Of a DNA stretch of 64,000 nucleotides, positions 5,856 to 61,563 are shown one piece after another. The notes below the pieces were generated by a model, which saw nothing but the letters and a program-made list of their open reading frames with translations, was not told the DNA's origin and made no database searches. The stretch covers positions 69,871 to 133,870 of the IMG/VR virus record IMGVR_UViG_3300042900_000746; one strand, given 5' to 3'. Position numbers and translations under genes: made by a program. The first letter of the stretch is position 1; each line of letters opens with the position of its first letter. This DNA comes from a virus (lineage: Duplodnaviria > Caudoviricetes).

Positions 5856-8800
5856 TATCTAACTCCCGCCGAAACGTCAATGCCCTGTGAGCCAAAAGGA
5901 TTCATAACTGGAGTAACACTTCCGGAAAATCCAAATCCATTCATCAGTTGGCGCAATTTATCAAGAGTGCTATTTCCATCGCTGCTTTTCCCAAATTGGG
6001 GATAACTAGGATTAGCTAAATTTGCTTCACGAATCTGCTGAGGGAAATATCCCATTTGAGACATTTCTATACCCATAGATTCTCCTGTTTTAATTTTTAC
6101 TTGTTCTAAGTTTGTGTTGGGGTGCCATCCTTCCCATGACGCATCCGGTAGTTCATGCCGTGTAAAATAATCGTCGAGATCTGGTCTTTGTTCAACATTC
6201 ATACCCCATGATGCTTCATATATTCTTCTCTCTAGACGTCCTGCAGTAGAGAGTATCCTGCCCCTTTCTCCTTCTGGAGCATTAAGCATGGCTTTAAAGT
6301 GTTCTCTTTTTCTTTTTGGAATAGATAGAGATAATGTATCAATGTCTTTACCATAAAGATCCGCACCATACATTGTTCTTTTTGCAGCCATCCCATAGTC
6401 TAATGCTGCTTTTTCATCCCCTGAAGATTTAGCCATAGTTTCTAATCTTTTATTTTTTACATAATTTAAGATGTCCGAATATTCTTCTAATGCTAATTCT
6501 TTTTTTCTTTGCTTCGGTATAAATCTTTCACCAGTTATTAATTCTGAAGCCTGCCCGTATGTTGATGCTGCCAGACCGGTAGTCACACCAACCGCTGTTC
6601 CCAGCAGTTTAGCTTTAGCTGTTCTGCCAAAAAGTGATCCGGCAATACCTAGTCCAGTCGCTGCTGTTATGGGATCTCTTTGTGTAGATTTGTCAATCAT
6701 TGGTTTGATATAACTATCGTATGGTCTTTGCCATTCAGGGAACGTAGCACCATATACATGCTTCCTTTCCCAATCTTCAGTAGCTGTTCTTTTTCCTATT
6801 GTTTTGTTAATAGCAAAGTTGTCGGAATGAGCTATATATTCGCCAATTCTTCCTGCGCCAAATTTTAATGGATGTTGCCCCATTTCTTCAGCTGATGACC
6901 CCTTGTATTTATAATCAGTAAATTCATTTTTAGTTGCCATACTTTCAACTTGGGATCTTATATCAGCTACTTTATTTCTTTCAGCGGGACCTAAATCCAT
7001 GCTGTCAATTTTTTTATCTAATGTTTTATATTGCTGAGAATATGGCGCAACATCTCCTAATATTTTCAATTGATCTAATGCGCCGTATGATCCAGTTGAA
7101 TCTGGATTTAATCTATTAAACCTTTCATACCCTACTCCCGGTAGTCTCAGTTCACCTTCTTGCACCTTAGTGTATGGATCTCCTCTAGTGAAGTCCGTAA
7201 AATATTCAGAACCAGGAAGGAATGGATACTGTTTACCCATTGTGTTTTCTATTGGGTTTATATAGTCTACGCCAGTTCTTTCTTTTGGAATAAATCTTCT
7301 AACAATTTCAGAGAATTCCAGGTTGCCCAATCCTTCTCTGTTGCCCAGCGGTGCGTCTCCTAATCCTCCAAGATTTAAATCCCAAAATGCTCGAGTACTT
7401 CCATAAGCTTTTGATGCCGACTGCAAAACGCTTCTTTGAGGCTGATAATCTTGCTGACCAAATCCTAATGATTTTCTTAAATTGCCAAAACCAAAACCAT
7501 AGATACCAGCCATTTCTTGCATTCTGAATCCAAGCTCACCTGCCTGGAAGGAACTAGTACTGGGTTCTAACGGAGCACCAGCTCCGACTATTCTGGGAGC
7601 CATTACGCCAGACACCTTGGGTGGACCATAAGCTAAATCGCTGTATTGAGAGTTTACATCTTTTAGTGAAGACCTAACCATCGACCCAGCAGCGCCGGTA
7701 CTTCCAGCTCTGCTAGCCAACATTGAGTTGACCCCAGAGATGCCTGTAGCTCCGCTGGAGCCGATTGGTGAACCAGGCCTAGCTGTCATTGCCCCAGAGC
7801 CAGTCAGGGGCATTCCAGGGGGCCCTCCAGCCATATCTCTTGTGAACCCCACTCCGTCTATGTAGCTTGAAGTCATTCCATACGCAGACGCGTCATAGGC
7901 CCCAGATTGACCTGCATTTGTATAATTAGCCAATCCTTGTGCTGTTTCATCCTCGTGCATTAGCACTTGAGGCTTTAGTAGTTTTCCGACTGTCATATTT
8001 GCGAGTGGGACAAGTGGACCAAAAGGACCGGTAAAATATTCACCGCTGACTGGGTATGGTCTGTCTTCGTAGTGCTTACGTTCAAATCTATAAGGATCTA
8101 ATGGTCTTAGTGGCGAAATATCATTATAAAATAAGAATTTTTCAGCTGGACTTCCGTATGTATCACTGGTGAACATGGCGCCTGCTTGAAGTTTTCGATA
8201 CCAAGAAGGCCTGTAATACTGGATCTTTCCACCTTTAAATGGAGTATTACCTAAAGGCCAAAATCTTCCTTGTCTTATTGGTACTTCTCCCTCAACCAAT
8301 TGCTCTTTCTTTTCGTCATATGTCATACCACCAGGAGTCAGCCCTGCAGATAAAGACTGCAGTTCCATCGCACCTTTTGCTACCTGGCCCAATACTAATG
8401 GCGAATAGACCCTTTCTCCTCTGTCATCCTTTTCATTGACCATCCCACCCATTGTTCTATCTACAGTAAGTGCCGTAACTCCAGCTGCATACATTGGCAG
8501 TACCCTCTTGCCAACCATTCCTGTTGCAAAAAGGTCTAGTGGTCCCTTAAAGTCAGAAACATTTAACTGCATCCCCAGTGTACCGAAATATCTATTTAGT
8601 CTTTCTACGCCCTGAGAAACTGGTATGCTCGCGGTAGAGAAACTTTGTGGATCAGAATACGTTGTTAATCCAATTGCGCTTTTGATCGCACCCATTGGAT
8701 CTCTTCCAAAAACTGTTCCAAAAGTTGGAACAACAGTTATACTTTGCCCAGAACCAAGTGGGTCTACAGCTAAATCATCCGCCTGATACCCAGATGTCCC

Positions 8801-11800
8801 GAGTGCTTTTTGTTTTAAGGAAACTAGTGGTGAGAATTTTTTACGAATACCCGTAGAAATTTTGCTCATCTCTGACTTAGCAAAGGGGTCAAACATACTC
8901 TTTAAACTACCGTTATTGGATCTTGAAAGTTCAAACATCTCTACTGCACCAGCACGAGCGTTTTCTAAATTCCCAGCCGAGTGTTTAAATGTTTTAAATG
9001 CACTCATGTTGAACATAGTGGACAGAGCTGCTGCTTGAGCTTCAACTCTCTCCGATGAACTGATGGCTCCAGATTTAATTAATTTGTCAACAACGGTTTG
9101 CATTTCGATGAATATATTTCCACTGCTACCTGCTTGCATTTGATTAGATTGAGAAATGTACCTAAATATTTCATTTTTTAATTGATCTAATTTAGTGGTA
9201 ATAGTCGGAGACTTTTCCGCCATTTGCGACATTGCATTGAGATTAGTAGAATCCTTTAAATTTCTTATTCTCGATGAAGAAGCGTTCAACATTGTTGGGT
9301 CTACGCCCTGTCTCCTGAGTTGTTGAGACACTAGTTTTTGAGCTGCTAATAAATCATCTGCGAACTTGACAGCGTCTTCTGCTGTTTCGATTGAGCTAGC
9401 GGTTCTTCCTCCAAATGTGAATAGACCTGGGTTAAGAGTTTCTAGTTCTTTCATTACCTTGACTGGAGTGCCATATCTAAGGGATTCTTTAGACAAAGAG
9501 TGCATTCCCCTTAAGAGATCTGCTTCAGAAAAATCATCTACTACATTTCCCAGATCATCTACTACACGAAGCCCTCCACTTGTTTGTTTGTCTATTTTTA
9601 TTAATCTTTCTTTTCCGCCAGAATTATATTTCAAGTCATCGCCAGATAATAGTCGAGCCATAACTCCATTATTACTTAAATCCGTAGAACGATTCTTAAA
9701 CCTAGAAGCTAGTCCGAACAATGAGTTTGGTTGTTCAGGATCAATGCTCATTTTTTTCTTGAAACGTAATGCTCTTTCTCCACCAAGAATTCTATCTAAA
9801 AATTTTGAACCGCTTGAATCTCTAATCTCATTAATTGTTTGACCCTGCATATTTGCCGCAAAACGAGTATGTCTTGTTAGCAGGTCTGTGGTATTCGTGG
9901 GCAGTGCTCTATAGGTTCCACTCATCAAAGAACTATGAATTGTTTCCGATACATTATCTGTATCAAAGGCCATTAATTTACCCTTGGAGCCTTTTGTTTT
10001 AAACCACATATGGAAATCAGATTTAGTACTAGCTCCCTCAGGCATAAACGGTTGGACAGATCTAGATGATACATACTGTAGTGGTGATCTATTGGCCATT
10101 TCCGAGAATGACCTATATCCAAATAGGTCAGCTGGATTGAATCCTAGAATTGGGATCTTAAACTCTGAAGCAAAAAAGTTTGCTGTTTTAGAAAATGTAG
10201 ATTTAACTGATGTAAAATCTAATATTTGACCGGATCTAGATTGATATACTCCATCCATTTTGCTAAATCCAATTGATTTAGAAACTGGATCGTTAATAGC
10301 CATTCTTGAAGCTAAGTCGTGGATTATCTTTTGTTCTGGTTCTGACATATGAGAGAAGCGTCCAGATTGTCGAGCTTCGTCAATTGTTAAAGATTTTAAT
10401 CCGAATAGATTATGTCCACCGCCAGAAACACCAGAAGTCATTTGACGATTCTTAATTAAGAAAGCTCTTAAGTCTGTAAATTGATTTGGATCAAAACCAC
10501 GTTTTCTCAAGCCCGCTGTGACTATGTCATTGGATACTTGTCGCCCAGTGCTATCTGTTAAATTTATTCCTAATGTTTGAGCAGTTTTTCTTTGCAAAAA
10601 TTCTGTTTTAGCTGCAGTTTGTGGGCCAGTGAAATCATTATAGTTAGCCTTCATTGGCTTGAGTATTCCGCCACCAATTGTAGTTAAATCATCTCTATAA
10701 AATTTATTCCAGTTTTTTTCTATTTTATTATTTAAACCTTTTTGGAATTCCTTAGAAGCAAATATATCTCTTGCGTCTTCAACTGAGTTCTTGAGCGCGT
10801 TGGGTTGAATTGCATCCTCAAAAGTTTTACCGCCAGAGACTCCCTTGTATCTTTGTATTACTCTTGAAAAAAAGTCTTCACTTAGGCTTGCTGCGTCTGC
10901 GCCTTCTTCATAAATTTTAGTTTTACCAATAGTTATTATATTGGTGCTTTCCATATTGGATCTTGGTAGTCGCACCTTTAAGTAATCTGTAAATTGTTTA
11001 GCCTGCTTACCGTCAAGCCCTCTTGATATCAACTGATCCTGAAGAAGATCTTTAAAAGCGTCAGTCTGTTGATTATATGCAAAGTTAGATCTTGGAAGGG
11101 ATTCATTGCCTGGGCCCCCTCCGCCCATTATCCTCACTCCTCTTGCAAAACTAGACAACCTACTAGAATGCTGGGACTGAATTTTGTGCATTGCGCTTTC
11201 TAGCGTTTGTGCAGCTTGAGGGGTGCCCCCCATTGACTTCAATACTCTAGCGTGAGCAATTGAATTTTCTAAGGCGTCATAACCTCTTCCTAAATTCTTG
11301 TATTCTTCTTTACCAGCAACAAATGCTTTTCTTAATCCACGGAATGCGGAGGGGAGTTCTGTGATAGATGCTGAAGTTTCACCAGAAGCGTCTTTGAAGC
11401 CCTTGAAGAATGCATTAGCTCCAGCCTTATTTATAGCCTGCCTAGAAGCTCCCTGTGCTATCTCTGCATCGCGTGCCGCCTTGACTCCATGTCTAAGGCT
11501 CTGGAGATTTTGTACGAAACCCTGTTGATTTTGCGTGTAAGCCTTAGTGGCAGTGCTAAGTGCTCCTGAAGTTTGTGCAGAACTTTTTAGAAATTTGTTA
11601 GTCATAGTGGCAAAGTCGTGACCGACATCTGCCAAAGTTTCTGTTACATCAACAAAACCTTGACGTAATTTTTTATTAAAAGGAGTTAGATTTCGCATAT
11701 CGTTCATTGAATACCTCAGGGTATTTAACGAACTCTTGCCAGCTCCTAATGCTGCTCCTGCGCCTTCAAATGGCGCTATCATAGTGGCCATCATAGTTAA

Positions 11801-50628: not shown

Positions 50629-52074
50629 TTAAGATAATTGAGATCGTATTCTTTTTATTGGTTTTTGCATGTCAAAAGTAAAACTTTTATTGACATAGTC
50701 GATATGGAATATAGTACCTTTAGGTACGTTACTATGCACAATTGTTTTTGCTAAAGGTGTTTCTATGACATCTCTTCTTACTTGAGCAATGCCACGAGCA
50801 CCTTTAATGGTGTCAATTCCACGTTCAATGAGACCGTCAATAACGTTATCGGTATAAGAAACAGAGATACCTCTTTTGGAAAGTTTATCCGCAATCACAG
50901 ACATCTCTAGCTCAGCTATCTTTTCACAATCCTGTCGATTCAAGTGATTGAAAACAACTATTTTATCTATTCTATTAATAAATTCTGGTCTGAAATATTT
51001 ATCTATTGCCTGGTGAGTATTTCTTTCTACAATAGATCGAACGGGTATCTCTGAAGTTTGACGATCAAAAACGATGCTTCTGGCGAAGCCAGTTCCTGTG
51101 GAGATTAGATTATCAACTGTTTTTTCATTACCTAAGTTGGTAGTCATGATAATAATTGTATTTCTAAAATCTACTAGTTCACCTTTATTATCTGTAACTA
51201 TTCCTTCATCAAATATTCTTAAAAAAGTATTCCAAATATCTTGATGCGCTTTTTCGACTTCATCTATTAAAACAACAGAATAAGGATTCTTCTTAACTTG
51301 GTTGGTTAGCTGTCCGCCTTCATCATGACCTATGTATCCTGGAGGAGAACCTAATAGTTTTTGGTTTTCATGTTTATGTTGAAACTCTCCGCAGTCCATT
51401 CTCACTATCTGAGATCCATTGCCAAACATATAATTATTAAGCATGTTTGCTAGGTGTGTTTTGCCGACTCCTGAAGATCCTGCAAATAAGAATACTCCTA
51501 ACGGTCTATTTGAATCATGTAAATCTGCTTGTGATCTAAATAAAGCTGAAACTATTTCTTCTATTGCTTGATCTTGTCCTATCACATTTGACTTCAAGAA
51601 TCCCTCTAAACCTAAAAACTTTTCTTTAGCGATCTTTCTATTCTTAGGAATGATCTCTTTGACTGTTTTTCTTTTAATATTCTTTTGAGCTTCTTGCAAA
51701 AACTTCTTTACTTCATTGAGATCGTAATCTTCATCTTCAGGGCTAATTTCTATAGGAGCTGTTGAGTAGGCAATGCTTATCCAGTAATCAATATCTAAAC
51801 CAGGGTTAAGCATAACACATCCAGCATAGATCGCTTCTAGTGCGCGTTCTGCTGCAGTACGAGACATTGCATTTAAAGATGACGAAACATCTGTATTCAA
51901 ATTAAAAACTACATACTGTAAAACTTGCTTGCGAAGATCTTTACTCTTTTTATGTTTAACAACGAATGCTTCTACATCTTCTGTCGGAATAATTTTAAAT
52001 TTTACATTAGCGTGCAACTCGGGTACGAAAATCTGGTATATCTGCATTAGCGACTTCTTTCTTTTATCTTGCAC
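50629..52074 (-). CDS. ClpB/ClpC-like AAA+ ATPase containing only the D2 module
   Basis: VIGQDQAI, RPLGVFLFAGSSGVGKT, LLGSPPGYIG, PYSVVLIDEVEKAH, VDFRNTIIIMTTN, FRPEFINRID and GAR; likely start is ATG 52047. Confidence 0.88.
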   Translation of the reverse strand: MQDKRKKSLMQIYQIFVPELHANVKFKIIPTEDVEAFVVKHKKSKDLRKQVLQYVVFNLNTDVSSSLNAMSRTAAERALEAIYAGCVMLNPGLDIDYWISIAYSTAPIEISPEDEDYDLNEVKKFLQEAQKNIKRKTVKEIIPKNRKIAKEKFLGLEGFLKSNVIGQDQAIEEIVSALFRSQADLHDSNRPLGVFLFAGSSGVGKTHLANMLNNYMFGNGSQIVRMDCGEFQHKHENQKLLGSPPGYIGHDEGGQLTNQVKKNPYSVVLIDEVEKAHQDIWNTFLRIFDEGIVTDNKGELVDFRNTIIIMTTNLGNEKTVDNLISTGTGFARSIVFDRQTSEIPVRSIVERNTHQAIDKYFRPEFINRIDKIVVFNHLNRQDCEKIAELEMSVIADKLSKRGISVSYTDNVIDGLIERGIDTIKGARGIAQVRRDVIETPLAKTIVHSNVPKGTIFHIDYVNKSFTFDMQKPIKRIRSQLS

Positions 52075-55163: not shown

Positions 55164-55673
55164 ATGATCATGAACGATCATGTTTTCAACCTGTTTATCA
55201 GGGTTATCAATGCAGCAAGTAATGGCAATTACGTCTACGGCAATGGAGCTAACTGGCACATTGTTGAAGGCGGAAAGGATGTCTTCATTGACACCCAATT
55301 GGGTACAGTAACAATGTCAAATGTTGACAGTACTGCAGTTAAAGGTACTGACATGCAAGCAGTACGTAACGTCAAGGCATACCTCATGGAGGCAGAAGCC
55401 ACCATGCAGACTGTTCACCTTGATGGCTATTACAACCGTAAGATGGCAGTAGATGCTATCTTGTGGGCAGACAAGAACAATGACTTGTTATACAGTAATG
55501 GTGGACAGTACAGTGTTCGTACAGGTGGTCTTGTGACTATCTGGGACATTGGTACAGCAGGACGCGTCATTGTTACTTACAAGGGTGCACATGCATCATT
55601 CAAACATCTGACAGCTAACAGTGGACGCACTGTTAAGTTGTCAGAAGATACGAAGAACTATATCCGTATCTGA
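55164..55673 (+). CDS. Hypothetical early-region protein (169 aa)
   Basis: GAAAGGA RBS; followed by a hairpin and the first repeat copy. Confidence 0.7.
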   Translation: MIMNDHVFNLFIRVINAASNGNYVYGNGANWHIVEGGKDVFIDTQLGTVTMSNVDSTAVKGTDMQAVRNVKAYLMEAEATMQTVHLDGYYNRKMAVDAILWADKNNDLLYSNGGQYSVRTGGLVTIWDIGTAGRVIVTYKGAHASFKHLTANSGRTVKLSEDTKNYIRI

Positions 55674-55704
55674 TTAAAGCAGTACCTAGTAGGGTAGGTA
55701 CGGA

Positions 55705-55760
55705 GAAGGTGGTTCCTCAGGATCTTATGATTCTGGGGAACTTCCTTTTTTGAGGATAGG
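55705..55760 (+). terminator. Repeat copy 1 (terminator plus putative promoter)
   Basis: GTTCCTCAGGATC-TTAT-GATTCTGGGGAAC TTCCTTTTTT GAGGATAGG. Confidence 0.8.
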
Positions 55761-55842
55761 TCATTGTCCTTTAGTAAGGTTCGCCATGGGCCAACGGATT
55801 CACTCGCGTTAAAGAGTAGACATGGAAGATGGTTTTACCATT

Positions 55843-55902
55843 CGTAATAATCACGTTCAATACGTTAAGTTGAACAAAGACATGTTTCTAGGAGGAATCA
55901 TG
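55843..55902 (+). promoter_or_regulatory. Structured 5' leader, copy 1
   Basis: Near-identical to 58161..58220, with a compensatory change in the GTTCA(A/G)...(T/C)TGAAC stem. Confidence 0.6.
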
Positions 55903-56127
55903 TTTGAAGTAATCAAGAAGTACAAGTACGCACTACTCATCTTGTTATTGGTATTCACACCAACAAGTAAGGTAGTGTTCGCGTTGTTCGGATTTCTTTC
56001 CGGATTCGTCAACTGGGGTCTTTTGATCCTGGTTGGCCTTGTTGTCTTGGGCATTAAGCTCAATAACAAGTTTGACCTGAGGGCAATGCTCTCAAGTCAG
56101 TCAGATGAGGAAGACTCCTTTATCTGA
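55900..56127 (+). CDS. Small membrane protein (75 aa, MFEVIKKYKY...)
   Basis: AGGAGG RBS; two hydrophobic segments. Confidence 0.75.
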   Translation: MFEVIKKYKYALLILLLVFTPTSKVVFALFGFLSGFVNWGLLILVGLVVLGIKLNNKFDLRAMLSSQSDEEDSFI

Positions 56128-56156
56128 TTAAGTAGGATGATGACCCATCCTGCTTA

Positions 56157-56216
56157 GAAGAAGTTGTTTCCCCTGGGGCATTTGCCTTGGGGGAAACTTC
56201 TTTTTTTGAGGATAGG
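56157..56216 (+). terminator. Repeat copy 2
   Basis: GTTTCCCCTGGGGCA-TT-TGCCTTGGGGGAAAC TTCTTTTTTT GAGGATAGG. Confidence 0.8.
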
Positions 56217-56255
56217 GGAAAGGCCCCTAACTCATTCCTTTGAAAGGGGATTATT

Positions 56256-56354
56256 ATGTCAGATAACATGTTCTTTATGATTGGCAACACCATATTTGTG
56301 GTGTGCTGCATAATGGCGATTGCGCCGTTATTCTTCTATAACAAGAAGAAGTAA
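56256..56354 (+). CDS. 32-aa membrane peptide (MSDNMFFMIGNTIFVVCCIMAIAPLFFYNKKK)
   Basis: Manually translated; GAAAGGGG RBS; fills the space between repeat copies 2 and 3. Confidence 0.6.
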   Translation: MSDNMFFMIGNTIFVVCCIMAIAPLFFYNKKK

Positions 56355-56359
56355 TTTAG

Positions 56360-56417
56360 AAAAAGTTGTTTCCCTGGGGTCTTCGGATCCTGGGGAAACT
56401 TCTTTTTTTGAGGATAG
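56360..56417 (+). terminator. Repeat copy 3
   Basis: GTTTCCCTGGGGTC-TTCG-GATCCTGGGGAAAC TTCTTTTTTT GAGGATAG; C(UUCG)G tetraloop. Confidence 0.85.
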
Positions 56418-56448
56418 ATCAATGGGATCAGTCCAGAAGGGGGTAACC

Positions 56449-56688
56449 ATGAAAATGGGAATCCACAAATTCAAGACAATAAAGGGTAATACCTTTGTTG
56501 TCGAAATCGGTCGCAGCATGACTTATGGTCATGTTGAGGCCCCGAATGGAGATTGGGTCGAGTTTTACGGCTCAATATCCATTCCTGAATTGGATGAGCA
56601 GGATGGTCAGACCATCATCGTGTTCACCCAGTTTGAATCGCAACGCCTTCGTGGCATTGCGATTCGTCCAGTCATTACCTTAGGGTAG
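56449..56688 (+). CDS. Hypothetical protein (79 aa, MKMGIHKFK...)
   Basis: GAAGGGGG RBS; start placed downstream of the repeat. Confidence 0.7.
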   Translation: MKMGIHKFKTIKGNTFVVEIGRSMTYGHVEAPNGDWVEFYGSISIPELDEQDGQTIIVFTQFESQRLRGIAIRPVITLG

Positions 56689-56741
56689 TGACTGGACAAA
56701 GGGCAGCGTTTTACCTTGCATACTAGCAAAGACGCATTATA

Positions 56742-56797
56742 GAAGAAGTTGTTCCCGGGGATTTAGGTCCCTGGGAACTTCTTTTTTTGAGGATAGG
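56742..56797 (+). terminator. Repeat copy 4
   Basis: GTTCCCGGGGAT-TTAG-GTCCCTGGGAAC TTCTTTTTTT GAGGATAGG. Confidence 0.8.
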
Positions 56798-56867
56798 CCA
56801 ACCGCGCCAGTCCAAGGGCATGAGTCACAGCCCTGCCAACACCGGCAAAGTGACAAAGGAGGTCGAG

Positions 56868-57158
56868 ATGAAACTCGATATCCAATGGTGGGCAACCACC
56901 AACAATTCCATTGTCGGGTTAATTCCCGTCAGTGGAAAGACTGTTGTGATCCGGGAGGGTCATGACGGTCACTTCACCGGCTACCAGGCCGATGAAGTCA
57001 CCCTGCAGCACCTAACTCATCAGGACAATATCTTTGCCCTGTATGCAGTTGTGCGCGCGGGGCAAAGGGTTGAAGAGATTCGTCTCCTCAATCCTTTATT
57101 CCTCGATCTACTGGGAATTGACCCAGTTGAGATCGTGGACTCTACTACCTTTATCTGA
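56868..57158 (+). CDS. Hypothetical protein (96 aa, MKLDIQWW...)
   Basis: AAAGGAGGT RBS. Confidence 0.7.
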   Translation: MKLDIQWWATTNNSIVGLIPVSGKTVVIREGHDGHFTGYQADEVTLQHLTHQDNIFALYAVVRAGQRVEEIRLLNPLFLDLLGIDPVEIVDSTTFI

Positions 57159-57170
57159 GGTAGTGGGGGA

Positions 57171-57227
57171 AGAAAGTTGTTCCTCGGGATTTTCGGATTC
57201 CGGGGAACTTCTTTTTTTGAGGATAGG
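57171..57227 (+). terminator. Repeat copy 5
   Basis: GTTCCTCGGGATT-TTCG-GATTCCGGGGAAC TTCTTTTTTT GAGGATAGG. Confidence 0.8.
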
Positions 57228-57268
57228 CAACAAGCCCGTCCATAATACCTCGGAAAGGAGGTGAAACA

Positions 57269-57550
57269 ATGAAGGCAAAGCCAGCAAGGCGAGTCTACGT
57301 CGCAAGGCGTATTCTCGTTGCGTTGATTGTTGTTCTTCTGTTCTTTGTTGCTCGCGGAATCCACCGTGAAGCAACAGAGCCCGCTTACACATGTGATGTG
57401 TCTGCGGCGTTCGTAGAGCAGGGGGATTCAATCTGGACTTTGTTAGAAGATCACTGTGAAGGCGATCTGACTTCCGCAAGATACTTTGTTACCGGTATCT
57501 ACGGAACGAAGGTTGTTCCTGGTCAGTTGATTCTTTTAACAAAGGACTGA
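57269..57550 (+). CDS. Membrane-anchored LysM-like protein (93 aa)
   Basis: Basic N-terminus, TM helix ILVALIVVLLFFVA, then VEQGDSIWTL...VVPGQLILL LysM-type motif; AAAGGAGGT RBS. Confidence 0.7.
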   Translation: MKAKPARRVYVARRILVALIVVLLFFVARGIHREATEPAYTCDVSAAFVEQGDSIWTLLEDHCEGDLTSARYFVTGIYGTKVVPGQLILLTKD

Positions 57551-57562
57551 TCACAATCAACC

Positions 57563-57621
57563 AAACTGCCACGACACGGGTGGCCAAGAAGTAGTGACTC
57601 TTGGGAACAGAAAAATCACTA
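57563..57621 (+). ncRNA. Candidate structured 3' RNA element (two hairpins plus pseudoknot), copy A
   Basis: GCCAC/GTGGC stem, CAAGA/TCTTG stem, GGAACAGAA, and loop TAGTGA pairing with downstream TCACTA. Confidence 0.5.
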
Positions 57622-57680
57622 AAGAGGTTGTTTCCCTGGGATCTTCGGATCCTGGGGAAACTTCCTTTTTTTGGGATAGG
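57622..57680 (+). terminator. Repeat copy 6
   Basis: GTTTCCCTGGGATC-TTCG-GATCCTGGGGAAAC TTCCTTTTTTT GGGATAGG. Confidence 0.8.
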
Positions 57681-57721
57681 CATTCGGCCTCCCTATATCA
57701 CCCCAGAAAGGAGGTGAAAAC

Positions 57722-57961
57722 ATGGGTGTCTCCATCTTCCTCGGAAACGAGGATCGAGCCTCTTGGACGTATGGTCATTTTGACCATGTCCTTCGCGCAC
57801 TAGGTCTTCCTAGTCCGGAGGAGTCCGATTGGGCTGGATCGATGGACCCAGAACATCTCGTTCAGAATCTCCACAAGATTGTGAATGCAGATGATCGGGA
57901 ATTCATAGCGGAAATCGCTATCGAGTCCCTGAGGTCTGGATCCTCGATCTCCTGGTCATAA
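57722..57961 (+). CDS. Hypothetical protein (79 aa)
   Basis: AAAGGAGGTG RBS. Confidence 0.75.
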   Translation: MGVSIFLGNEDRASWTYGHFDHVLRALGLPSPEESDWAGSMDPEHLVQNLHKIVNADDREFIAEIAIESLRSGSSISWS

Positions 57962-57973
57962 CCAGGCGATTGG

Positions 57974-58030
57974 ACACCGCCACTTGTAAGAGAGTGGCCG
58001 AGTTGGCGCAACTTGGGAACAGAAGCGCTA
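57974..58030 (+). ncRNA. Candidate structured 3' RNA element, copy B
   Basis: GCCACT/AGTGGC stem, CGAGTT/AACTTG stem, GGAACAGAA, and loop GGCGC pairing with GCGCT. Confidence 0.5.
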
Positions 58031-58090
58031 AAGAGGTTGTTTCCTCTGGGATTTTCGAATCCTGGAGGAAACTTCCTTTTTTGAGGATAG
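58031..58090 (+). terminator. Repeat copy 7
   Basis: GTTTCCTCTGGGATT-TTCG-AATCCTGGAGGAAAC TTCCTTTTTT GAGGATAG. Confidence 0.8.
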
Positions 58091-58160
58091 ACCATTGTCC
58101 TTACTGGTAGCCAGAATGCAGGCATAAAACCAGTCCGGGTGACGCCGGTTCATCAGTCAA

Positions 58161-58220
58161 CGTAATAATCACGTTCAGTACGTTAAGCTGAACAAAGGCA
58201 TGTTTCTTGGAGGGATCATG
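58161..58220 (+). promoter_or_regulatory. Structured 5' leader, copy 2
   Basis: Near-identical to 55843..55902 and ends at the RBS and ATG. Confidence 0.6.
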
Positions 58221-58778
58221 TCACATAGTAAAACAGCAGCAGAGTTTGCTGCAAAGGTCCACGAAAGGTTGGCTCCTGCAAGGGAAGCCTACTATGAGTG
58301 GCTCAAAGGGGTGTACCAGTTATGGAATACCCAGTTCTTCAGCAAGAAGTCGGTCACCCAGGATGTCCTGGACCGTTCCGACAAGGGTGGGGATGAAGAT
58401 CCCTGGATGACATTTCAGAGCACACTCTGTACTGTAATGTCAGAGAAGTACCCGCGATTTGGGCTTCTCATGAATCCCGATGAAAACGGTCAGTCCATTC
58501 TGGATGGATTCATCCTGGATTTGGATGAGCCAGGCGACTGGTACATCAAAGCCGAAACAAACCCAGAGACTGGGATCACTTGGGTGGCTTTGTTTGTAGA
58601 AGACAAGGACCCATATGACCCGTGGGCAGGACAAATGTGGAATATCCCATTCCACTTCAACGTGAAGTTCACGCAATTTGGGTACCAGGTCCTTGGGGCT
58701 TGGTCTAACGGGTATAAGAGTGATGAAGAATGGGAGGTGTGGGGTGAGCCTGAGTTTTCAGGCTACCAGTTTCCCTGA
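58218..58778 (+). CDS. Acidic Trp-rich hypothetical protein (186 aa, MSHSKTAA...)
   Basis: GGAGGG RBS. Confidence 0.75.
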   Translation: MSHSKTAAEFAAKVHERLAPAREAYYEWLKGVYQLWNTQFFSKKSVTQDVLDRSDKGGDEDPWMTFQSTLCTVMSEKYPRFGLLMNPDENGQSILDGFILDLDEPGDWYIKAETNPETGITWVALFVEDKDPYDPWAGQMWNIPFHFNVKFTQFGYQVLGAWSNGYKSDEEWEVWGEPEFSGYQFP

Positions 58779-58798
58779 GTTAATTATTATTAGTAGTT

Positions 58799-58863
58799 AA
58801 GTTGTTCCCCGGGGATTGGCAGAAATGCTGGTCCTCGGGGAATCTTCTTTTTTTGACAATAGG
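58799..58863 (+). terminator. Repeat copy 8 (variant TTGACAATAGG)
   Basis: TTCCCCGGGGATTGGCA-GAAA-TGCTGGTCCTCGGGGAA hairpin plus T tract. Confidence 0.75.
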
Positions 58864-58897
58864 CCCCCGAACAACCGAAGGGGTCGGAAAGGTTGTC

Positions 58898-59215
58898 ATG
58901 TTGGTAAACTTAACTCCTCACGAGGTAACACTCGTGAATGATCAGGGTGATATTACCCTGGTCATCAAGCCGGAGGGAACTCCTGCTCGGTGCGCAGTGA
59001 AGCGAGAGATCGCATTCATTGCGGACGGTATTAGTGTCAATAAGAGTGTGTTCGGAGAGGTCGTTGGCCTTCCGGAGCCCATTGAAGGCACTTGGTATAT
59101 TGTTAGCCGGATTGTAGCAGAAGCTGCACAACGTTCAGATCTTCTGGTTCCGGATGAAACAGTTCGGAACCAAGAAGGTCAGATTGTTGGTTGTAAGTCA
59201 TTTGCAACAATCTGA
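58898..59215 (+). CDS. Phage hypothetical protein with NLTPH motif (105 aa)
   Basis: MLVNLTPHEV, GLPEP, YIVSRIVA, DLLVP and VRNQEGQIVGC pattern that I recall from a widespread phage family of unknown function. Confidence 0.75.
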   Translation: MLVNLTPHEVTLVNDQGDITLVIKPEGTPARCAVKREIAFIADGISVNKSVFGEVVGLPEPIEGTWYIVSRIVAEAAQRSDLLVPDETVRNQEGQIVGCKSFATI

Positions 59216-59232
59216 GTTAATTATTAACAATT

Positions 59233-59288
59233 GAGTTGTTTCCCCTGGGGTCTTTGGGCCCTGGGGGAAACTTCTTTTTTGAGGATAG
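59233..59288 (+). terminator. Repeat copy 9
   Basis: GTTTCCCCTGGGGTC-TTTG-GGCCCTGGGGGAAAC TTCTTTTTT GAGGATAG. Confidence 0.8.
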
Positions 59289-59334
59289 ACCATTGGGGTC
59301 AGTCCACAACTCACCAACGAAAGGAGGTGAAATA

Positions 59335-59511
59335 ATGGCTCCCACCTGGGACTCGGTTGGTGTTTGTTCGCTTTGCGGACAGGACATAACTGTAGAAGAG
59401 GTGGTGGATCACTGGTACAAGCTCCCTACAGGGGAACTTGGAACAACGGTTCACCGAACCAGGGATGAATCCATGCCGCTCGTTCACGGGCAGTGCATCG
59501 ATTCTCTCTGA
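59335..59511 (+). CDS. 58-aa Cys/His zinc-binding protein (MAPTWDSVGVCSLC...HGQC)
   Basis: AAAGGAGGTG RBS; CxxC and HxxC. Confidence 0.65.
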   Translation: MAPTWDSVGVCSLCGQDITVEEVVDHWYKLPTGELGTTVHRTRDESMPLVHGQCIDSL

Positions 59512-59525
59512 GACCCTCGTCCCAC

Positions 59526-59586
59526 AAACCGCTACTTGAAAGAGAGTAGCCGGGGTGAACACTCCTACCCTGGGAACAGAATGGAG
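59526..59586 (+). ncRNA. Candidate structured 3' RNA element, copy C
   Basis: GCTACT/AGTAGC stem, CGGGGT/ACCCTG stem, GGAACAGAA, and loop CTCC pairing with GGAG. Confidence 0.5.
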
Positions 59587-59593
59587 ACAACTC

Positions 59594-59656
59594 GTCCCTA
59601 CCCTGGGGATCTTCGGATCCCTGGGGTAGAGACCCTACCTTTTTTTTGAGGATAGG
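59594..59656 (+). terminator. Repeat copy 10
   Basis: CTACCCTGGGGATC-TTCG-GATCCCTGGGGTAG, then CCTTTTTTTT GAGGATAGG. Confidence 0.75.
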
Positions 59657-59685
59657 CCACCCAGGCCAGTCCAGGAAAGGAAACC

Positions 59686-59850
59686 ATGGCTCTTAACAAA
59701 ACCATGGTTGCTATCCACATCGCCTTGTTCTTGGCGATGTTCGGTGTAATTACAATGGCTAGCCCAGGCTGGTTCATTGTGTTTATGCTGACTGTCATAA
59801 CGGGTTATTGCGTTATTGGCGGTTGGATCGCAGCAAAAAGCGAGGACTGA
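59686..59850 (+). CDS. 54-aa two-helix membrane protein (MALNKTMVAIHIALF...)
   Basis: Manually translated; GAAAGGA RBS; fills the space between repeat copies 10 and 11. Confidence 0.65.
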   Translation: MALNKTMVAIHIALFLAMFGVITMASPGWFIVFMLTVITGYCVIGGWIAAKSED

Positions 59851-59875
59851 CAAACCTCGTTGTCCATGAAACCGC

Positions 59876-59937
59876 TCCTTACCCTGGGGATCTTAGGATC
59901 TCTGGGGTAAGGACCCTACCCTTTTTTTGAGGATAGG
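59876..59937 (+). terminator. Repeat copy 11
   Basis: TCCTTACCCTGGGGATC-TTAG-GATCTCTGGGGTAAGGA, then CCCTTTTTTT GAGGATAGG. Confidence 0.75.
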
Positions 59938-59966
59938 CCACTGGGGCCAGTCCACGAAAGGGAAAT

Positions 59967-60269
59967 ATGAAAGTCAAGAACAAGTGGTGGGTCTCATACA
60001 AGATCCGCCAAGTTGCCAAAGCCCGTGAAAGGGCAATGGTCAACCCAGCCACCGTCAAGCAGCTATGCTTCATCGCATTCCTGCTCGAGTTCACAATCGT
60101 CAATGCCGAAGAGGCAAAGACCATTAAGACAATGGTCCACAATGGAGTGGATTTCTACTGGGCCAGCAAGACCATCAAGTACCTGCAACAGAAGCCTTAC
60201 CGCTTCACATTTGCGGAGTACAAAGTCAAGAATGCCAATTGGGACTACGCTAATAAGCGTTGGTTCTGA
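59967..60269 (+). CDS. Basic hypothetical protein (100 aa)
   Basis: GAAAGGGA RBS; ATG 30 nt after the repeat. Confidence 0.7.
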   Translation: MKVKNKWWVSYKIRQVAKARERAMVNPATVKQLCFIAFLLEFTIVNAEEAKTIKTMVHNGVDFYWASKTIKYLQQKPYRFTFAEYKVKNANWDYANKRWF

Positions 60270-60292
60270 TAGTAGATAAGTAAAAAAAAAGT

Positions 60293-60343
60293 AAGGTGCA
60301 GATCCTCTCGTTTGGGATCTGTGCCTTCTTTTTTTGGCATAGG
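60293..60343 (+). terminator. Repeat copy 12 (variant TTGGCATAGG)
   Basis: AAGGTGCAGATCCT...GGGATCTGTGCCTT hairpin plus T tract. Confidence 0.7.
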
Positions 60344-60402
60344 CGTTAGGCCTCTAGCTACAGTTAACTAAATCTGTTGGAAAATTAGTAAGAAAGGAAA
60401 TC

Positions 60403-60666
60403 ATGTCAGTTAATGGACCATGGGATGAAGATCCTATGTGGGTTCCGGATCTTGAAGATTCGGAGCTTGCTAATACATGTTTCAGGTGTCAAGAATTGGA
60501 AGCTGAATTGGAATCATGGAAGCTCACCGCTTCTATGTGGATGGCGGAGGCTGAAGCGCAAGCGGAGTCTGACTTGGCACGCTTTGAACTTCAAGAGCAG
60601 TACATGCGCCAACAAGAAAAGGAAGCTGAAAGAAAGAGAAGGGAATACGGCAAACCAAGTAACTAA
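60403..60666 (+). CDS. Coiled-coil hypothetical protein (87 aa)
   Basis: GAAAGGA RBS; CxxC followed by a Glu-rich helix. Confidence 0.7.
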   Translation: MSVNGPWDEDPMWVPDLEDSELANTCFRCQELEAELESWKLTASMWMAEAEAQAESDLARFELQEQYMRQQEKEAERKRREYGKPSN

Positions 60667-60681
60667 GTAAGTAAGTAAGTA

Positions 60682-60737
60682 GAAGGATTGTTCCCGGGGA
60701 TTTCGGTCCTCGGGAACTTCCTTTTTTTGAGGATAGG
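60682..60737 (+). terminator. Repeat copy 13
   Basis: GTTCCCGGGGAT-TTCG-GTCCTCGGGAAC TTCCTTTTTTT GAGGATAGG. Confidence 0.8.
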
Positions 60738-60766
60738 CCACTGGGGTCAGTCCAAGAAAGGAAATC

Positions 60767-61258
60767 ATGTCAGTTAATAATCAATTCCGGCAAAGGCTGG
60801 ATGTGATCTCGAAAGTAGAGATTGTATCTGGCTGCTTGGAGATTACTTCAAGCAACGCTGCAATATTACTTGCAGGACCACTGACGTATGGACAATACAT
60901 TAGTGTGTTTTCGGGTAAGAAGTATTCGTTTGTTGGAACATCGCAAGATGGCGCTATCATCGATGCATTTATGCACGACGGTAGTGCCCGTGACAATGGT
61001 GGGTATGGCGGCGACGCTTTTGAACTCACGATGAATGATGGATCTCACCGAGTTTTGGTCGGTCCATGGTCTAGCCGACCATCAGTCCATAGCGTTAACA
61101 GTGGAATTTCTTTCACGGAAGTCCGAGTTAACGGTAGGCTGGCTTACTTTTCTCAGGCATTCATTGCGGCAATTGTTCACGAATTCAACATCAATGCAAC
61201 AATGACCGTACGAGTTGATGAAGACGGTGAGATATATCTTGAGTTAGTAAGTAAATAA
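60767..61258 (+). CDS. Hypothetical protein (163 aa)
   Basis: GAAAGGA RBS; GGYGG and GPWSS motifs. Confidence 0.75.
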   Translation: MSVNNQFRQRLDVISKVEIVSGCLEITSSNAAILLAGPLTYGQYISVFSGKKYSFVGTSQDGAIIDAFMHDGSARDNGGYGGDAFELTMNDGSHRVLVGPWSSRPSVHSVNSGISFTEVRVNGRLAYFSQAFIAAIVHEFNINATMTVRVDEDGEIYLELVSK

Positions 61259-61278
61259 GTAAGTAAGTAAAGTAAGAC

Positions 61279-61330
61279 GAGGTAGTCCCTGGGGAGAAAT
61301 CCCTGGGGACTTTCCTTTTTTTGCCAATAA
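61279..61330 (+). terminator. Repeat copy 14 (degenerate, TTGCCAATAA)
   Basis: AGTCCCTGGGGA-GAAA-TCCCTGGGGACT hairpin plus T tract. Confidence 0.75.
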
Positions 61331-61427
61331 ATCGTTGGCCCTTAAACAGGAGGTAGAAATGTAATGAATACCATTGTTAATACTCAATTGCTTAATTTAG
61401 TAATAATAGACCCTTCTCTACCCCCCG

Positions 61428-61474
61428 CCTAGGAGGATAGCCATGGACCTTAGGTTCCTTTTTTTGACGATAGG
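61428..61474 (+). promoter_or_regulatory. Repeat copy 15 (weak hairpin, TTTTTTTGACGATAGG) upstream of the RNA polymerase-like gene
   Basis: Core motif retained and followed by CCATTGGCCTTTAGT, as in copies 1 and 7. Confidence 0.6.
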
Positions 61475-61563
61475 CCATTGGCCTTTAGTCACACGTGAGG
61501 TTCCACGTCAGGGCCAACAGTTTGTGTGTATCTGTACAAAAACACACAGAAAGGGAGGGAGAG

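Follow-up and report, generated by a model that had tools for sequence, protein, structure and literature searches.

The last 64 kb of the linear, 133,870-bp viral contig IMGVR_UViG_3300042900_000746 (positions 69,871 to 133,870, a stretch of 64,000 nucleotides hereafter called the window) raise a question about RNA. At about 55.6-61.5 kb of the window lie some 15 small genes on the plus strand, each followed by a strong hairpin and a T-run, and in three of these roughly 15 cassettes an extra element of about 55 nt stands between the stop codon and the terminator. What is this element, and what could it do there? The analysis below shows that the three repeated folds are real and that they are a known domain of transfer-messenger RNA (tmRNA) in a new role. 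The fuller reading, to which we give about an even chance, is that the element is the stand-alone hairpin (H5/P5) and PK2 pseudoknot of a two-piece tmRNA, placed in the 3' untranslated regions (3'UTRs) of early genes and acting there as an exonuclease barrier.

A pseudoknot repeated behind three small genes

The element consists of a hairpin (P1), a stem (S1), the invariant strand GGAACAGAA and a second stem (S2), in which a downstream strand pairs with the loop of S1. A preliminary description of the window had placed three copies on the plus strand between stop codon and terminator; all three are there, and its stems and letters are all correct. Common to the copies are P1, of the form GCYAC(U)/(A)GURGC, the invariant strand, and an S1 that starts with a C-G pair followed by G-U or A-U and then by variable pairs. 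The S2 partners are wholly different from copy to copy, with 6, 5 and 4 bp.

The sequence TGGGAACAGAA was found exactly three times, always on the plus strand and always at the motif, and nowhere else in the 133,870-bp contig; with up to one mismatch there are five matches for 1.42 expected, a number reached in 0 of 100 shuffles. A covariance model (R1) found copies 1, 2 and 3 at E 8.6e-17, 2e-16 and 5.6e-16, respectively, with the next match at E 0.94. Compared with shuffles of the loop and tail, the pairing of S2 gave p values of 0.007, 0.009 and 0.30 for copies 1, 2 and 3; the 4-bp S2 of copy 3 is therefore not significant by itself, and taken alone the three copies are suggestive but thin evidence. 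Folding z-scores computed without pseudoknots were -0.86, -2.38 and -2.23, a method that is uninformative for a pseudoknot. An outer helix, CAACC/GGTTG, that would close copy 1 was dropped because copies 2 and 3 are without it.

The Infernal comparison with Rfam that the preliminary description had proposed assigned no family to the motif. With Rfam 15, no family reached its gathering score in the window, the matches at E <= 10 between 57400 and 59800 were chance microRNA and small nucleolar RNA matches that did not fall on the motif, and no riboswitch or ribozyme family matched the motif at E <= 10. Of the options first put forward, a small ribozyme, which would here cleave itself and process the early transcripts, is extremely improbable. 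A compact pseudoknot with an invariant strand would suit it, and a related virus contig (L099) carries a Pistol ribozyme elsewhere (8369-8436, minus strand; RF02679, 65.3 bits, E 1.8e-9), together with one stand-alone module and the same GAGGATAG cassettes. Against it, the motif matches no ribozyme family and shows no cleavage-site signature, and the same element is, as described below, a stable part of mature tmRNA; nothing at the locus points to a ribozyme.

The element corresponds to the 3' domain of two-piece tmRNAs

Viral contigs were scanned with a pattern derived from the motif, which gave 105 loci, and a stricter pattern gave 69 metagenome loci and 13 genome loci. The window, viral and metagenome loci together comprised 115 distinct cores. 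A structural filter that demanded at least 4 bp in S1 and also in S2, whose start had to be no more than 5 nt from the strand, was passed by 44 of the 115, and the remaining 71 look like chance. Thirteen of the 44 are located at the end of the tag reading frame of a tmRNA, and 31 lie outside any tmRNA; six of these stand-alone cores lack P1 and are either chance matches or cut by the end of a contig.

ARAGORN identified permuted tmRNAs at the motif in L006, L020, L028, L076 and L104, among others. Their tags end in AIAA, AVAA or ALAA (e.g., ANDYDVAIAA and ANNADYTPASYAIAA), and the stop codon lies in or next to P1. Rfam assigned the tag-end cores to tmRNA_permuted, alpha_tmRNA or beta_tmRNA. 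Since the tmRNA_permuted model (RF04321) terminates exactly at the tag stop codon, the element is outside its coverage, while the alpha_tmRNA model (RF01849) does cover it: in L020, ACUUGGGAACAGAA-CCCCUCAC was aligned to its 3'-terminal consensus. A "new" motif without an Rfam match can be a piece of a known RNA whose model ends short of it. The genes around these tmRNAs are those of phages (gp32, ribonucleotide reductase, a lysozyme-type domain), a setting consistent with the two-piece tmRNAs published for marine myophages (PMC9004378). After S2, these tmRNA genes have either a U-run or a tRNA gene, which makes the element the 3' terminus of the mature coding piece; according to PMC3985003, this piece of a two-piece tmRNA comprises PK1, the tag and PK2, with PK2 at the 3' end. 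The fold, which had been presented as unrecognised, is the hairpin and PK2 pseudoknot of a two-piece tmRNA found outside a tmRNA gene.

The exact GGGAACAGAA variant occurs mostly in phage-borne tmRNAs, but also in at least 30 distinct stand-alone copies on uncultured phage-like contigs. The closest matches of the window element are this variant as carried by phage-encoded tmRNAs. The exact variant is rare in bacterial genomes. Among 151 Burkholderiales genomes, the motif model matched only the seed genome (G007), so that the variant is not the usual tmRNA of Burkholderiales, and the pattern gave 13 matches among species genomes, of which one is a tmRNA (L122), a few may be short-loop relatives (L131, L124 and L133) and the rest are weak. 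The short-loop relatives come from gut contigs of Alistipes, Oscillospiraceae and Faecalibacterium (R1 E 2e-8 to 9e-7) and show GCCGAGCU..CUUGGGAACAGAA, a long insert in P1 and a very short S1 loop; they may represent another stand-alone variant, present in bacteria of the gut or in their prophages.

The tie to PK2 was also followed in bacterial tmRNAs collected without the motif pattern: of 151 alphaproteobacterial genomes sampled, 148 matched RF04321, and 30 of the tmRNA loci found in this way were examined. In all 30 loci, S1 is followed by AACAGA(A/G) and then by the 3' strand of S2, and S2 covaries at six of six pairs, with values reached in 0 of 500 shuffles. The mixed model R1 fell on the hairpin-PK2 site in 27 of the 30 loci (17 at E <= 0.02), and all 24 of its matches with E below 0.47 were on target, part of its score on tmRNA loci stemming from the tag end. 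A hidden Markov model built from 12 stand-alone copies alone had its best five matches on PK2, at E 0.09-0.8, none of them individually significant. The same topology, a hairpin and then an H-type pseudoknot, is common to the window copies, to L020, L006 and L078, and to the 30 bacterial loci.

The closest known system is accordingly the H5/P5 hairpin and PK2 of two-piece tmRNA, of the alphaproteobacterial type and with phage copies (RF01849 and RF04321; described in PMC3985003 and PMC9004378). The order of parts is the same in both: the hairpin, S1, the 5' strand of S2 within the S1 loop, the 3' strand of S1, G-N-AACAGAA and the 3' strand of S2. The letters GUAGCC-GRG...CYUGGGAACAGAA are identical in the module and in phage-borne tmRNAs, and both are located at the 3' end of a transcript, often directly ahead of a U-run. 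Unlike the tmRNA domain, the module lacks a tag frame, PK1 and a tRNA-like piece, and its hairpin contains no stop codon; it follows ordinary open reading frames (ORFs) of 58-93 amino acids, and its P1 is fully Watson-Crick. A tRNA-like domain, a resume codon, an Ala-Ala tag end and a stop codon in the hairpin are likewise absent from the window copies, and ARAGORN detected no tmRNA in the window or in the rest of the contig. No Rfam tmRNA family (RF00023, RF01849, RF01850 or RF04321) matched the window, and the best match of RF04321 in the contig (E 0.35) lies elsewhere. The H5-PK2 part of the one-piece E. coli tmRNA, as described in PMC8363625, is also a hairpin followed by an H-type pseudoknot, with no sequence similarity to the module and with an S1 that is a long interrupted helix, followed by PK3 and PK4.

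Stand-alone copies are under selection as a fold

In an alignment of 30 distinct stand-alone copies to R1, 96.6% of the cells were paired, compared with 24-56% in slid controls, and 46 cells had changed on both sides, compared with 15.2 +/- 5.5 in shuffles, none of 500 of which reached this number; the alignment was fitted to R1, and the search pattern fixes parts of the 3' strands. These counts uphold the earlier proposal of a selected fold with compensatory changes. Among copies chosen for P1 and S1 only, S2 had a mean length of 4.47 bp compared with 3.49 +/- 0.15 bp after shuffling, whereas in chance pattern matches it was not longer than in shuffles (4.32 and 4.20 bp). Overall, pairing and covariation are seen in P1, S1 and S2, the strand GGAACAGAA does not vary, and S1 keeps a G-U wobble, found at its second pair in 28 of the 30 copies.

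Could these copies nevertheless be neutral debris, i.e., fragments of tmRNA 3' ends left by recombination or attachment-site remnants, with a covariation inherited from differing source tmRNAs? Elements that integrate into ssrA duplicate the 3' end of the gene, and L074 carries a full permuted tmRNA and a second copy of the tag end and PK2 about 1 kb upstream (11094-11527 and 10029-10098, both on the plus strand), which is the pattern that such an integration leaves. Fragments of tmRNA genes from the integration of islands are described in PMC4131195, and the cassettes of the window recombine in the population. Several features of the stand-alone copies argue the other way. The Ala-Ala-stop end of the tag is gone from them, and P1 has moved from GCUGC, with a G-U pair, to the Watson-Crick GCYAC: its fourth pair is A-U in 27 of the 30 copies and G-U in the tmRNA copies, where the 5' strand encodes Ala-Ala. 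Compensatory changes are found inside the stand-alone lineage, since copy 1, L014 and L058 differ by such changes and follow unrelated ORFs; between copy 1 and L014, an A-U pair of S1 has become C-G. In addition, 26 of 28 copies agree in strand and position, the same three copies persist in the related contigs L173, L218 and L231, and no integrase was found in the available part of the genome, a contig estimated to be 63% complete. Debris is thus quite improbable as an explanation.

The module lies at the 3' end of transcription units

With respect to the gene in front of it, the module shares the coding strand, comes behind the stop codon and closes the transcription unit at its 3' end. An ORF of at least 40 amino acids on the same strand precedes 26 of the 28 stand-alone copies that have enough upstream sequence. 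The distance from the stop codon to P1 is 14-19 nt in 14 of these 26, with spacers that are not alike, and -10, 2-4, 21, 26 or 41-47 nt in the others. In six window cassettes without the motif, the terminator starts 20-25 nt past the stop codon, which makes a spacing of 14-19 nt only mildly special. On the other side of the module, a U-run directly follows S2 in 10 of the 31 stand-alone cores and comes later in another 10; where it follows directly, the pseudoknot itself is predicted to form the terminator. In all stand-alone lineages P1 directly abuts S1.

This arrangement could be read as ribosome docking, an unlikely reading but the chief rival of the barrier set out below. By analogy with H5-PK2 of tmRNA, P1 and the pseudoknot would bind uS3, uS4 and uS5 at the mRNA entrance of the ribosome that terminates on the upstream gene, and would help there with termination or recycling, or else protect the phage message against A-site cleavage and tagging by tmRNA; bulk early production might instead compete with tmRNA for the uS3 site. 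As reported in PMC8363625, nucleotides C183-A186 of E. coli tmRNA bind the KH2 domain of uS3, and H5 and PK2 sit at the mRNA entrance, where H5 contacts uS3, uS4 and uS5. The distance from the A-site codon to the hairpin in E. coli tmRNA is similar to the spacing seen here. In the ssrA gene of strain K-12, C183-A186 map to CAAA, one base past the 3' strand of S1, where the equivalent strand of the module is GGAACAGAA, and 17 nt separate the resume codon from H5. The strand, the G-U pair of S1 (28/30) and the sequence of P1 are all conserved beyond the needs of the fold, P1 abuts S1 throughout, and the distance of 14-19 nt recurs with non-homologous spacers; docking would account for the invariance of the strand, for the retention of P1 and for the spacing. 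This spacing is not universal, however, and may merely reflect a minimum distance in compact genomes, as the motif-less terminators suggest. Moreover, intact 3'UTRs are not known to be tmRNA substrates anyway.

That phages placed the ribosome-docking H5-PK2 of tmRNA behind the stop codons of selected genes, at a fixed distance of 14-19 nt, so as to occupy the uS3 site, is an unlikely reading, though one with consequences. If it were true, the module would be a shield in cis that keeps exonucleases, A-site cleavage and the rescue-and-tagging activity of host tmRNA/SmpB off phage messages, or else the bulk of early module might jam trans-translation in trans. The invariant GGAACAGAA would then be a ligand of the uS3 KH domain, and the module would show what PK2 is for.

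Possible function as a 3'-end barrier

The most likely function, in our view, is that of an exonuclease barrier, with which one of the options of the preliminary description, a nuclease-blocking element, stays the leading functional guess even though the fold is no longer an unrecognised one. The module would have shed the tag reading frame and the tRNA-like partner and would now be a 3'UTR cassette behind three small early genes. There it would form a compact H-type pseudoknot with an A-rich strand crossing S1, placed immediately past the stretch that the terminating ribosome covers and immediately ahead of the terminator, or, in other phages, itself providing the terminator stem. Exonucleases moving from 3' to 5' would be halted before they erode the message back to the stop codon, so that the mRNA would stay translatable and would not become a non-stop template. 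PK2 presumably does the same job where the coding piece of tmRNA has its free 3' end. As general background, exonucleases are reported to trim an mRNA to the edge of a paused ribosome before A-site cleavage, ribosomal protein S1 to bind tmRNA pseudoknots, and PK2-PK4 to be replaceable.

Several observations weigh against identifying the element with PK2 or against the barrier. On the side of identity, the model R2, built from the 30 bacterial PK2 only, matched none of the three window copies at E <= 10 with filters off, and the window has no match to any Rfam tmRNA family. The bacterial S1 contains a conserved G-G mismatch in 30 of 30 loci that is missing from the phage S1, and the near-identical tmRNA copies were retrieved with the motif pattern, so that their likeness over about 17 nt is by construction. 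From the failure of R2 and the G-G mismatch, we read the window element as a phage branch of the domain and not as the bacterial consensus. S2 is weak in several stand-alone copies (3 bp in L085 and L093, 4 bp in copy 3). On the side of function, 11 of the 31 stand-alone cores lack a strict U-run over a distance of 90 nt, an extra barrier looks redundant in the window cassettes with their already strong terminator hairpins, and only three of the roughly 15 cassettes carry the module. In addition, a purely structural barrier does not obviously need the invariant 11-nt strand.

The strong conservation at single-stranded and wobble positions could instead reflect a bound protein. As a decoy or handle, the module would bind a host or phage partner of the tmRNA 3' domain (such as protein S1, RNase R or a processing enzyme) and titrate it or recruit it to the three mRNAs, a role with which three copies on early transcripts would agree. 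Phages carry tmRNA sub-domains thought to titrate partners, such as the RNA of mycobacteriophage DS6A that consists of the tRNA-like domain only (PMC4131195). This fragment resembles the module in being a single tmRNA sub-domain in a phage, but according to the same source it is the opposite sub-domain, the SmpB-binding tRNA-like end, and it forms a separate gene and not a 3'UTR element. A decoy would not require the constant place between stop codon and terminator, and, as for integrase, no SmpB gene was found in the available part of the genome, estimated at 63%. We consider a decoy improbable.

The place directly upstream of a terminator also recalls a riboswitch or antiterminator, in which a ligand- or factor-dependent pseudoknot would control read-through of the next terminator. 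The H-type topology with an A-rich strand is that of preQ1-I, and GGGAAC is complementary to the GTTCCC found at the base of several cassette terminators. No such complement exists in the terminator behind copy 3, and the GGGAAC/GTTCCC pairing was dropped for this reason. Furthermore, Rfam offers no riboswitch match at E <= 10, the genes downstream are provided with a promoter-like box of their own, and the element also stands at the end of tmRNA genes, which have no regulated gene behind them; this reading appears highly improbable, and nothing points to a riboswitch any more than to a ribozyme. The put RNAs of phage HK022 bind RNA polymerase through two stem-loops and suppress termination farther downstream; an antiterminator RNA of this type is made unlikely by the relation to tmRNA.

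With preQ1-I and SAM-II riboswitches and viral frameshift pseudoknots, the module shares a topology in which the A-rich strand could lie along S1. It differs from them in having no Rfam match, no regulated downstream gene and no slippery site, and in lying behind the stop codon, not ahead of it. Intrinsic terminators and 3' stabiliser hairpins occupy the same place, after the stop codon at the RNA 3' end; unlike theirs, the stem of the module sits in a conserved pseudoknot with an invariant 11-nt strand, and in the window a separate canonical terminator follows.

No description of a stand-alone PK2 or tmRNA-like pseudoknot in phage mRNAs was found in a literature search conducted at less than full-text depth. 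The role of the tmRNA pseudoknots has long been unclear. According to PMC3985003 and PMC8363625, PK2 is the pseudoknot that two-piece tmRNAs have retained and the only one that touches the ribosome. An H5-PK2 that has come free of tmRNA and that selection maintains downstream of ordinary genes, across many unrelated phage-like contigs, isolates the function of this domain and makes it testable in a simple reporter (half-life, 3' ends, termination, tagging) without the rest of trans-translation. It also adds to the regulatory cassettes of phages a compact, 55-nt candidate module for mRNA 3' ends, which in some phages would be a pseudoknotted terminator.

Organization of the cassette array

The contig comes from a large uncultured lake-water phage. 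It has a G+C content of 37.5%, carries genes for a T4-type large terminase, a UvsX-like recombinase and a Clp-type AAA+ ATPase, and its DNA is present in 23 DNA sequencing runs labelled lake water metagenome. A BLAST search of 50,697 named phage records with the region, two phage tmRNAs and two stand-alone loci as queries gave no match.

Copy 1 (57568..57621, plus strand, as are all features of this and the following copies) lies behind an orphan gene of 93 amino acids (57269..57550) whose stop codon TGA (57548-57550) ends 17 nt before P1. P1 is formed by 57568-72/57580-84, S1 by 57585-89/57599-603 and S2 by 57592-97/57616-21 (6 bp), and the strand L3 (57604-15) reads GGAACAGAA(AAA), with GGAACAGAA itself at 57604-12. 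A terminator with a 14-bp stem and a T-run, found by terminator scan and sequence, follows at 57630..57671, and then comes a GGGATAGG box. Copy 2 (57979..58029) follows an orphan gene of 79 amino acids with a strong Shine-Dalgarno sequence (57722..57961; stop codon TAA at 57959-61), again with 17 nt between stop codon and P1. Its P1 is 57979-84/57993-98, S1 57999-58004/58010-15 and S2 58005-09/58025-29 (5 bp, one of them G-U), with GGAACAGAA as L3 at 58016-24; the terminator, from the same scan, is at 58039..58083 and is followed by a TTTTTTGAGGATAG box.

Copy 3 (59531..59586) lies 19 nt behind an orphan gene of 58 amino acids (59335..59511), which starts with ATG after AAAGGAGGTGA and ends with TGA (59509-11). 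It comprises P1 59531-36/59545-50, S1 59551-56/59567-72, S2 59562-65/59583-86 (4 bp) and L3 59573-82, with GGAACAGAA at 59573-81. The terminator (59598..59647) contains a 14-bp stem (59598-59629), a small hairpin (59625-39) and a run of eight T (59640-47), followed by GAGGATAGG. The 58-residue gene and its motif are kept together in L068/L075. None of the three upstream genes has a PHROG match; their products end in KD, WS and SL. The end of S2 is separated from the start of the cassette terminator by 8-11 nt in all three copies.

Across the array (window 55600-61500) the cassette terminators are near-identical, and after 10 of the hairpin/T-run ends there is a box, TTTTTGAGGATAG, whose 10 exact copies are confined to 125.6-130.6 kb of the genome. 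Contigs from other lake samples link the cassettes in different orders, with skips and back-joints, which indicates that the array is undergoing shuffling or recombination in the population. A single RNA run (X24; contigs only, depth 2-4) spans 57302-57602 and 57826-57976 and ends inside or before the motifs, a coverage too thin to be read as 3' ends or as proof of transcription.

Strong AAAGGAGGTGA Shine-Dalgarno sequences precede the early genes (57722, 59335 and neighbouring starts), which argues against a Bacteroidota host. The Clp-type ATPase mentioned above is a protein of 481 amino acids (window 50629-52074, minus strand) with AAA_2 and ClpB_D2-small domains and a match to the PHROG "ATP-dependent protease" (E 3e-104). 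SsrA-tagged proteins are degraded by unfoldases of the Clp class, so that its presence beside tmRNA-derived modules attracts attention, although it could be a coincidence.

Two further structures were seen near stand-alone modules elsewhere. In L117, a complete phage record of 115,584 bp, a second and weaker pseudoknot-like terminator lies at about 1345-1395 on the minus strand, some 150 nt past the GGGAACAGAA module; its strand is of bacterial type, GGCAACAGAA, and leads into ATGGTT and a run of nine T (R1 E 0.12). In L196, at about 5540-5610 on the minus strand, the stretch behind the stand-alone module contains a GGTTCGATTCC T-loop; by its sequence, this may be a tRNA-like gene directly behind the module, as tRNA-Gly is behind the tmRNA in L020, L028 and L076.

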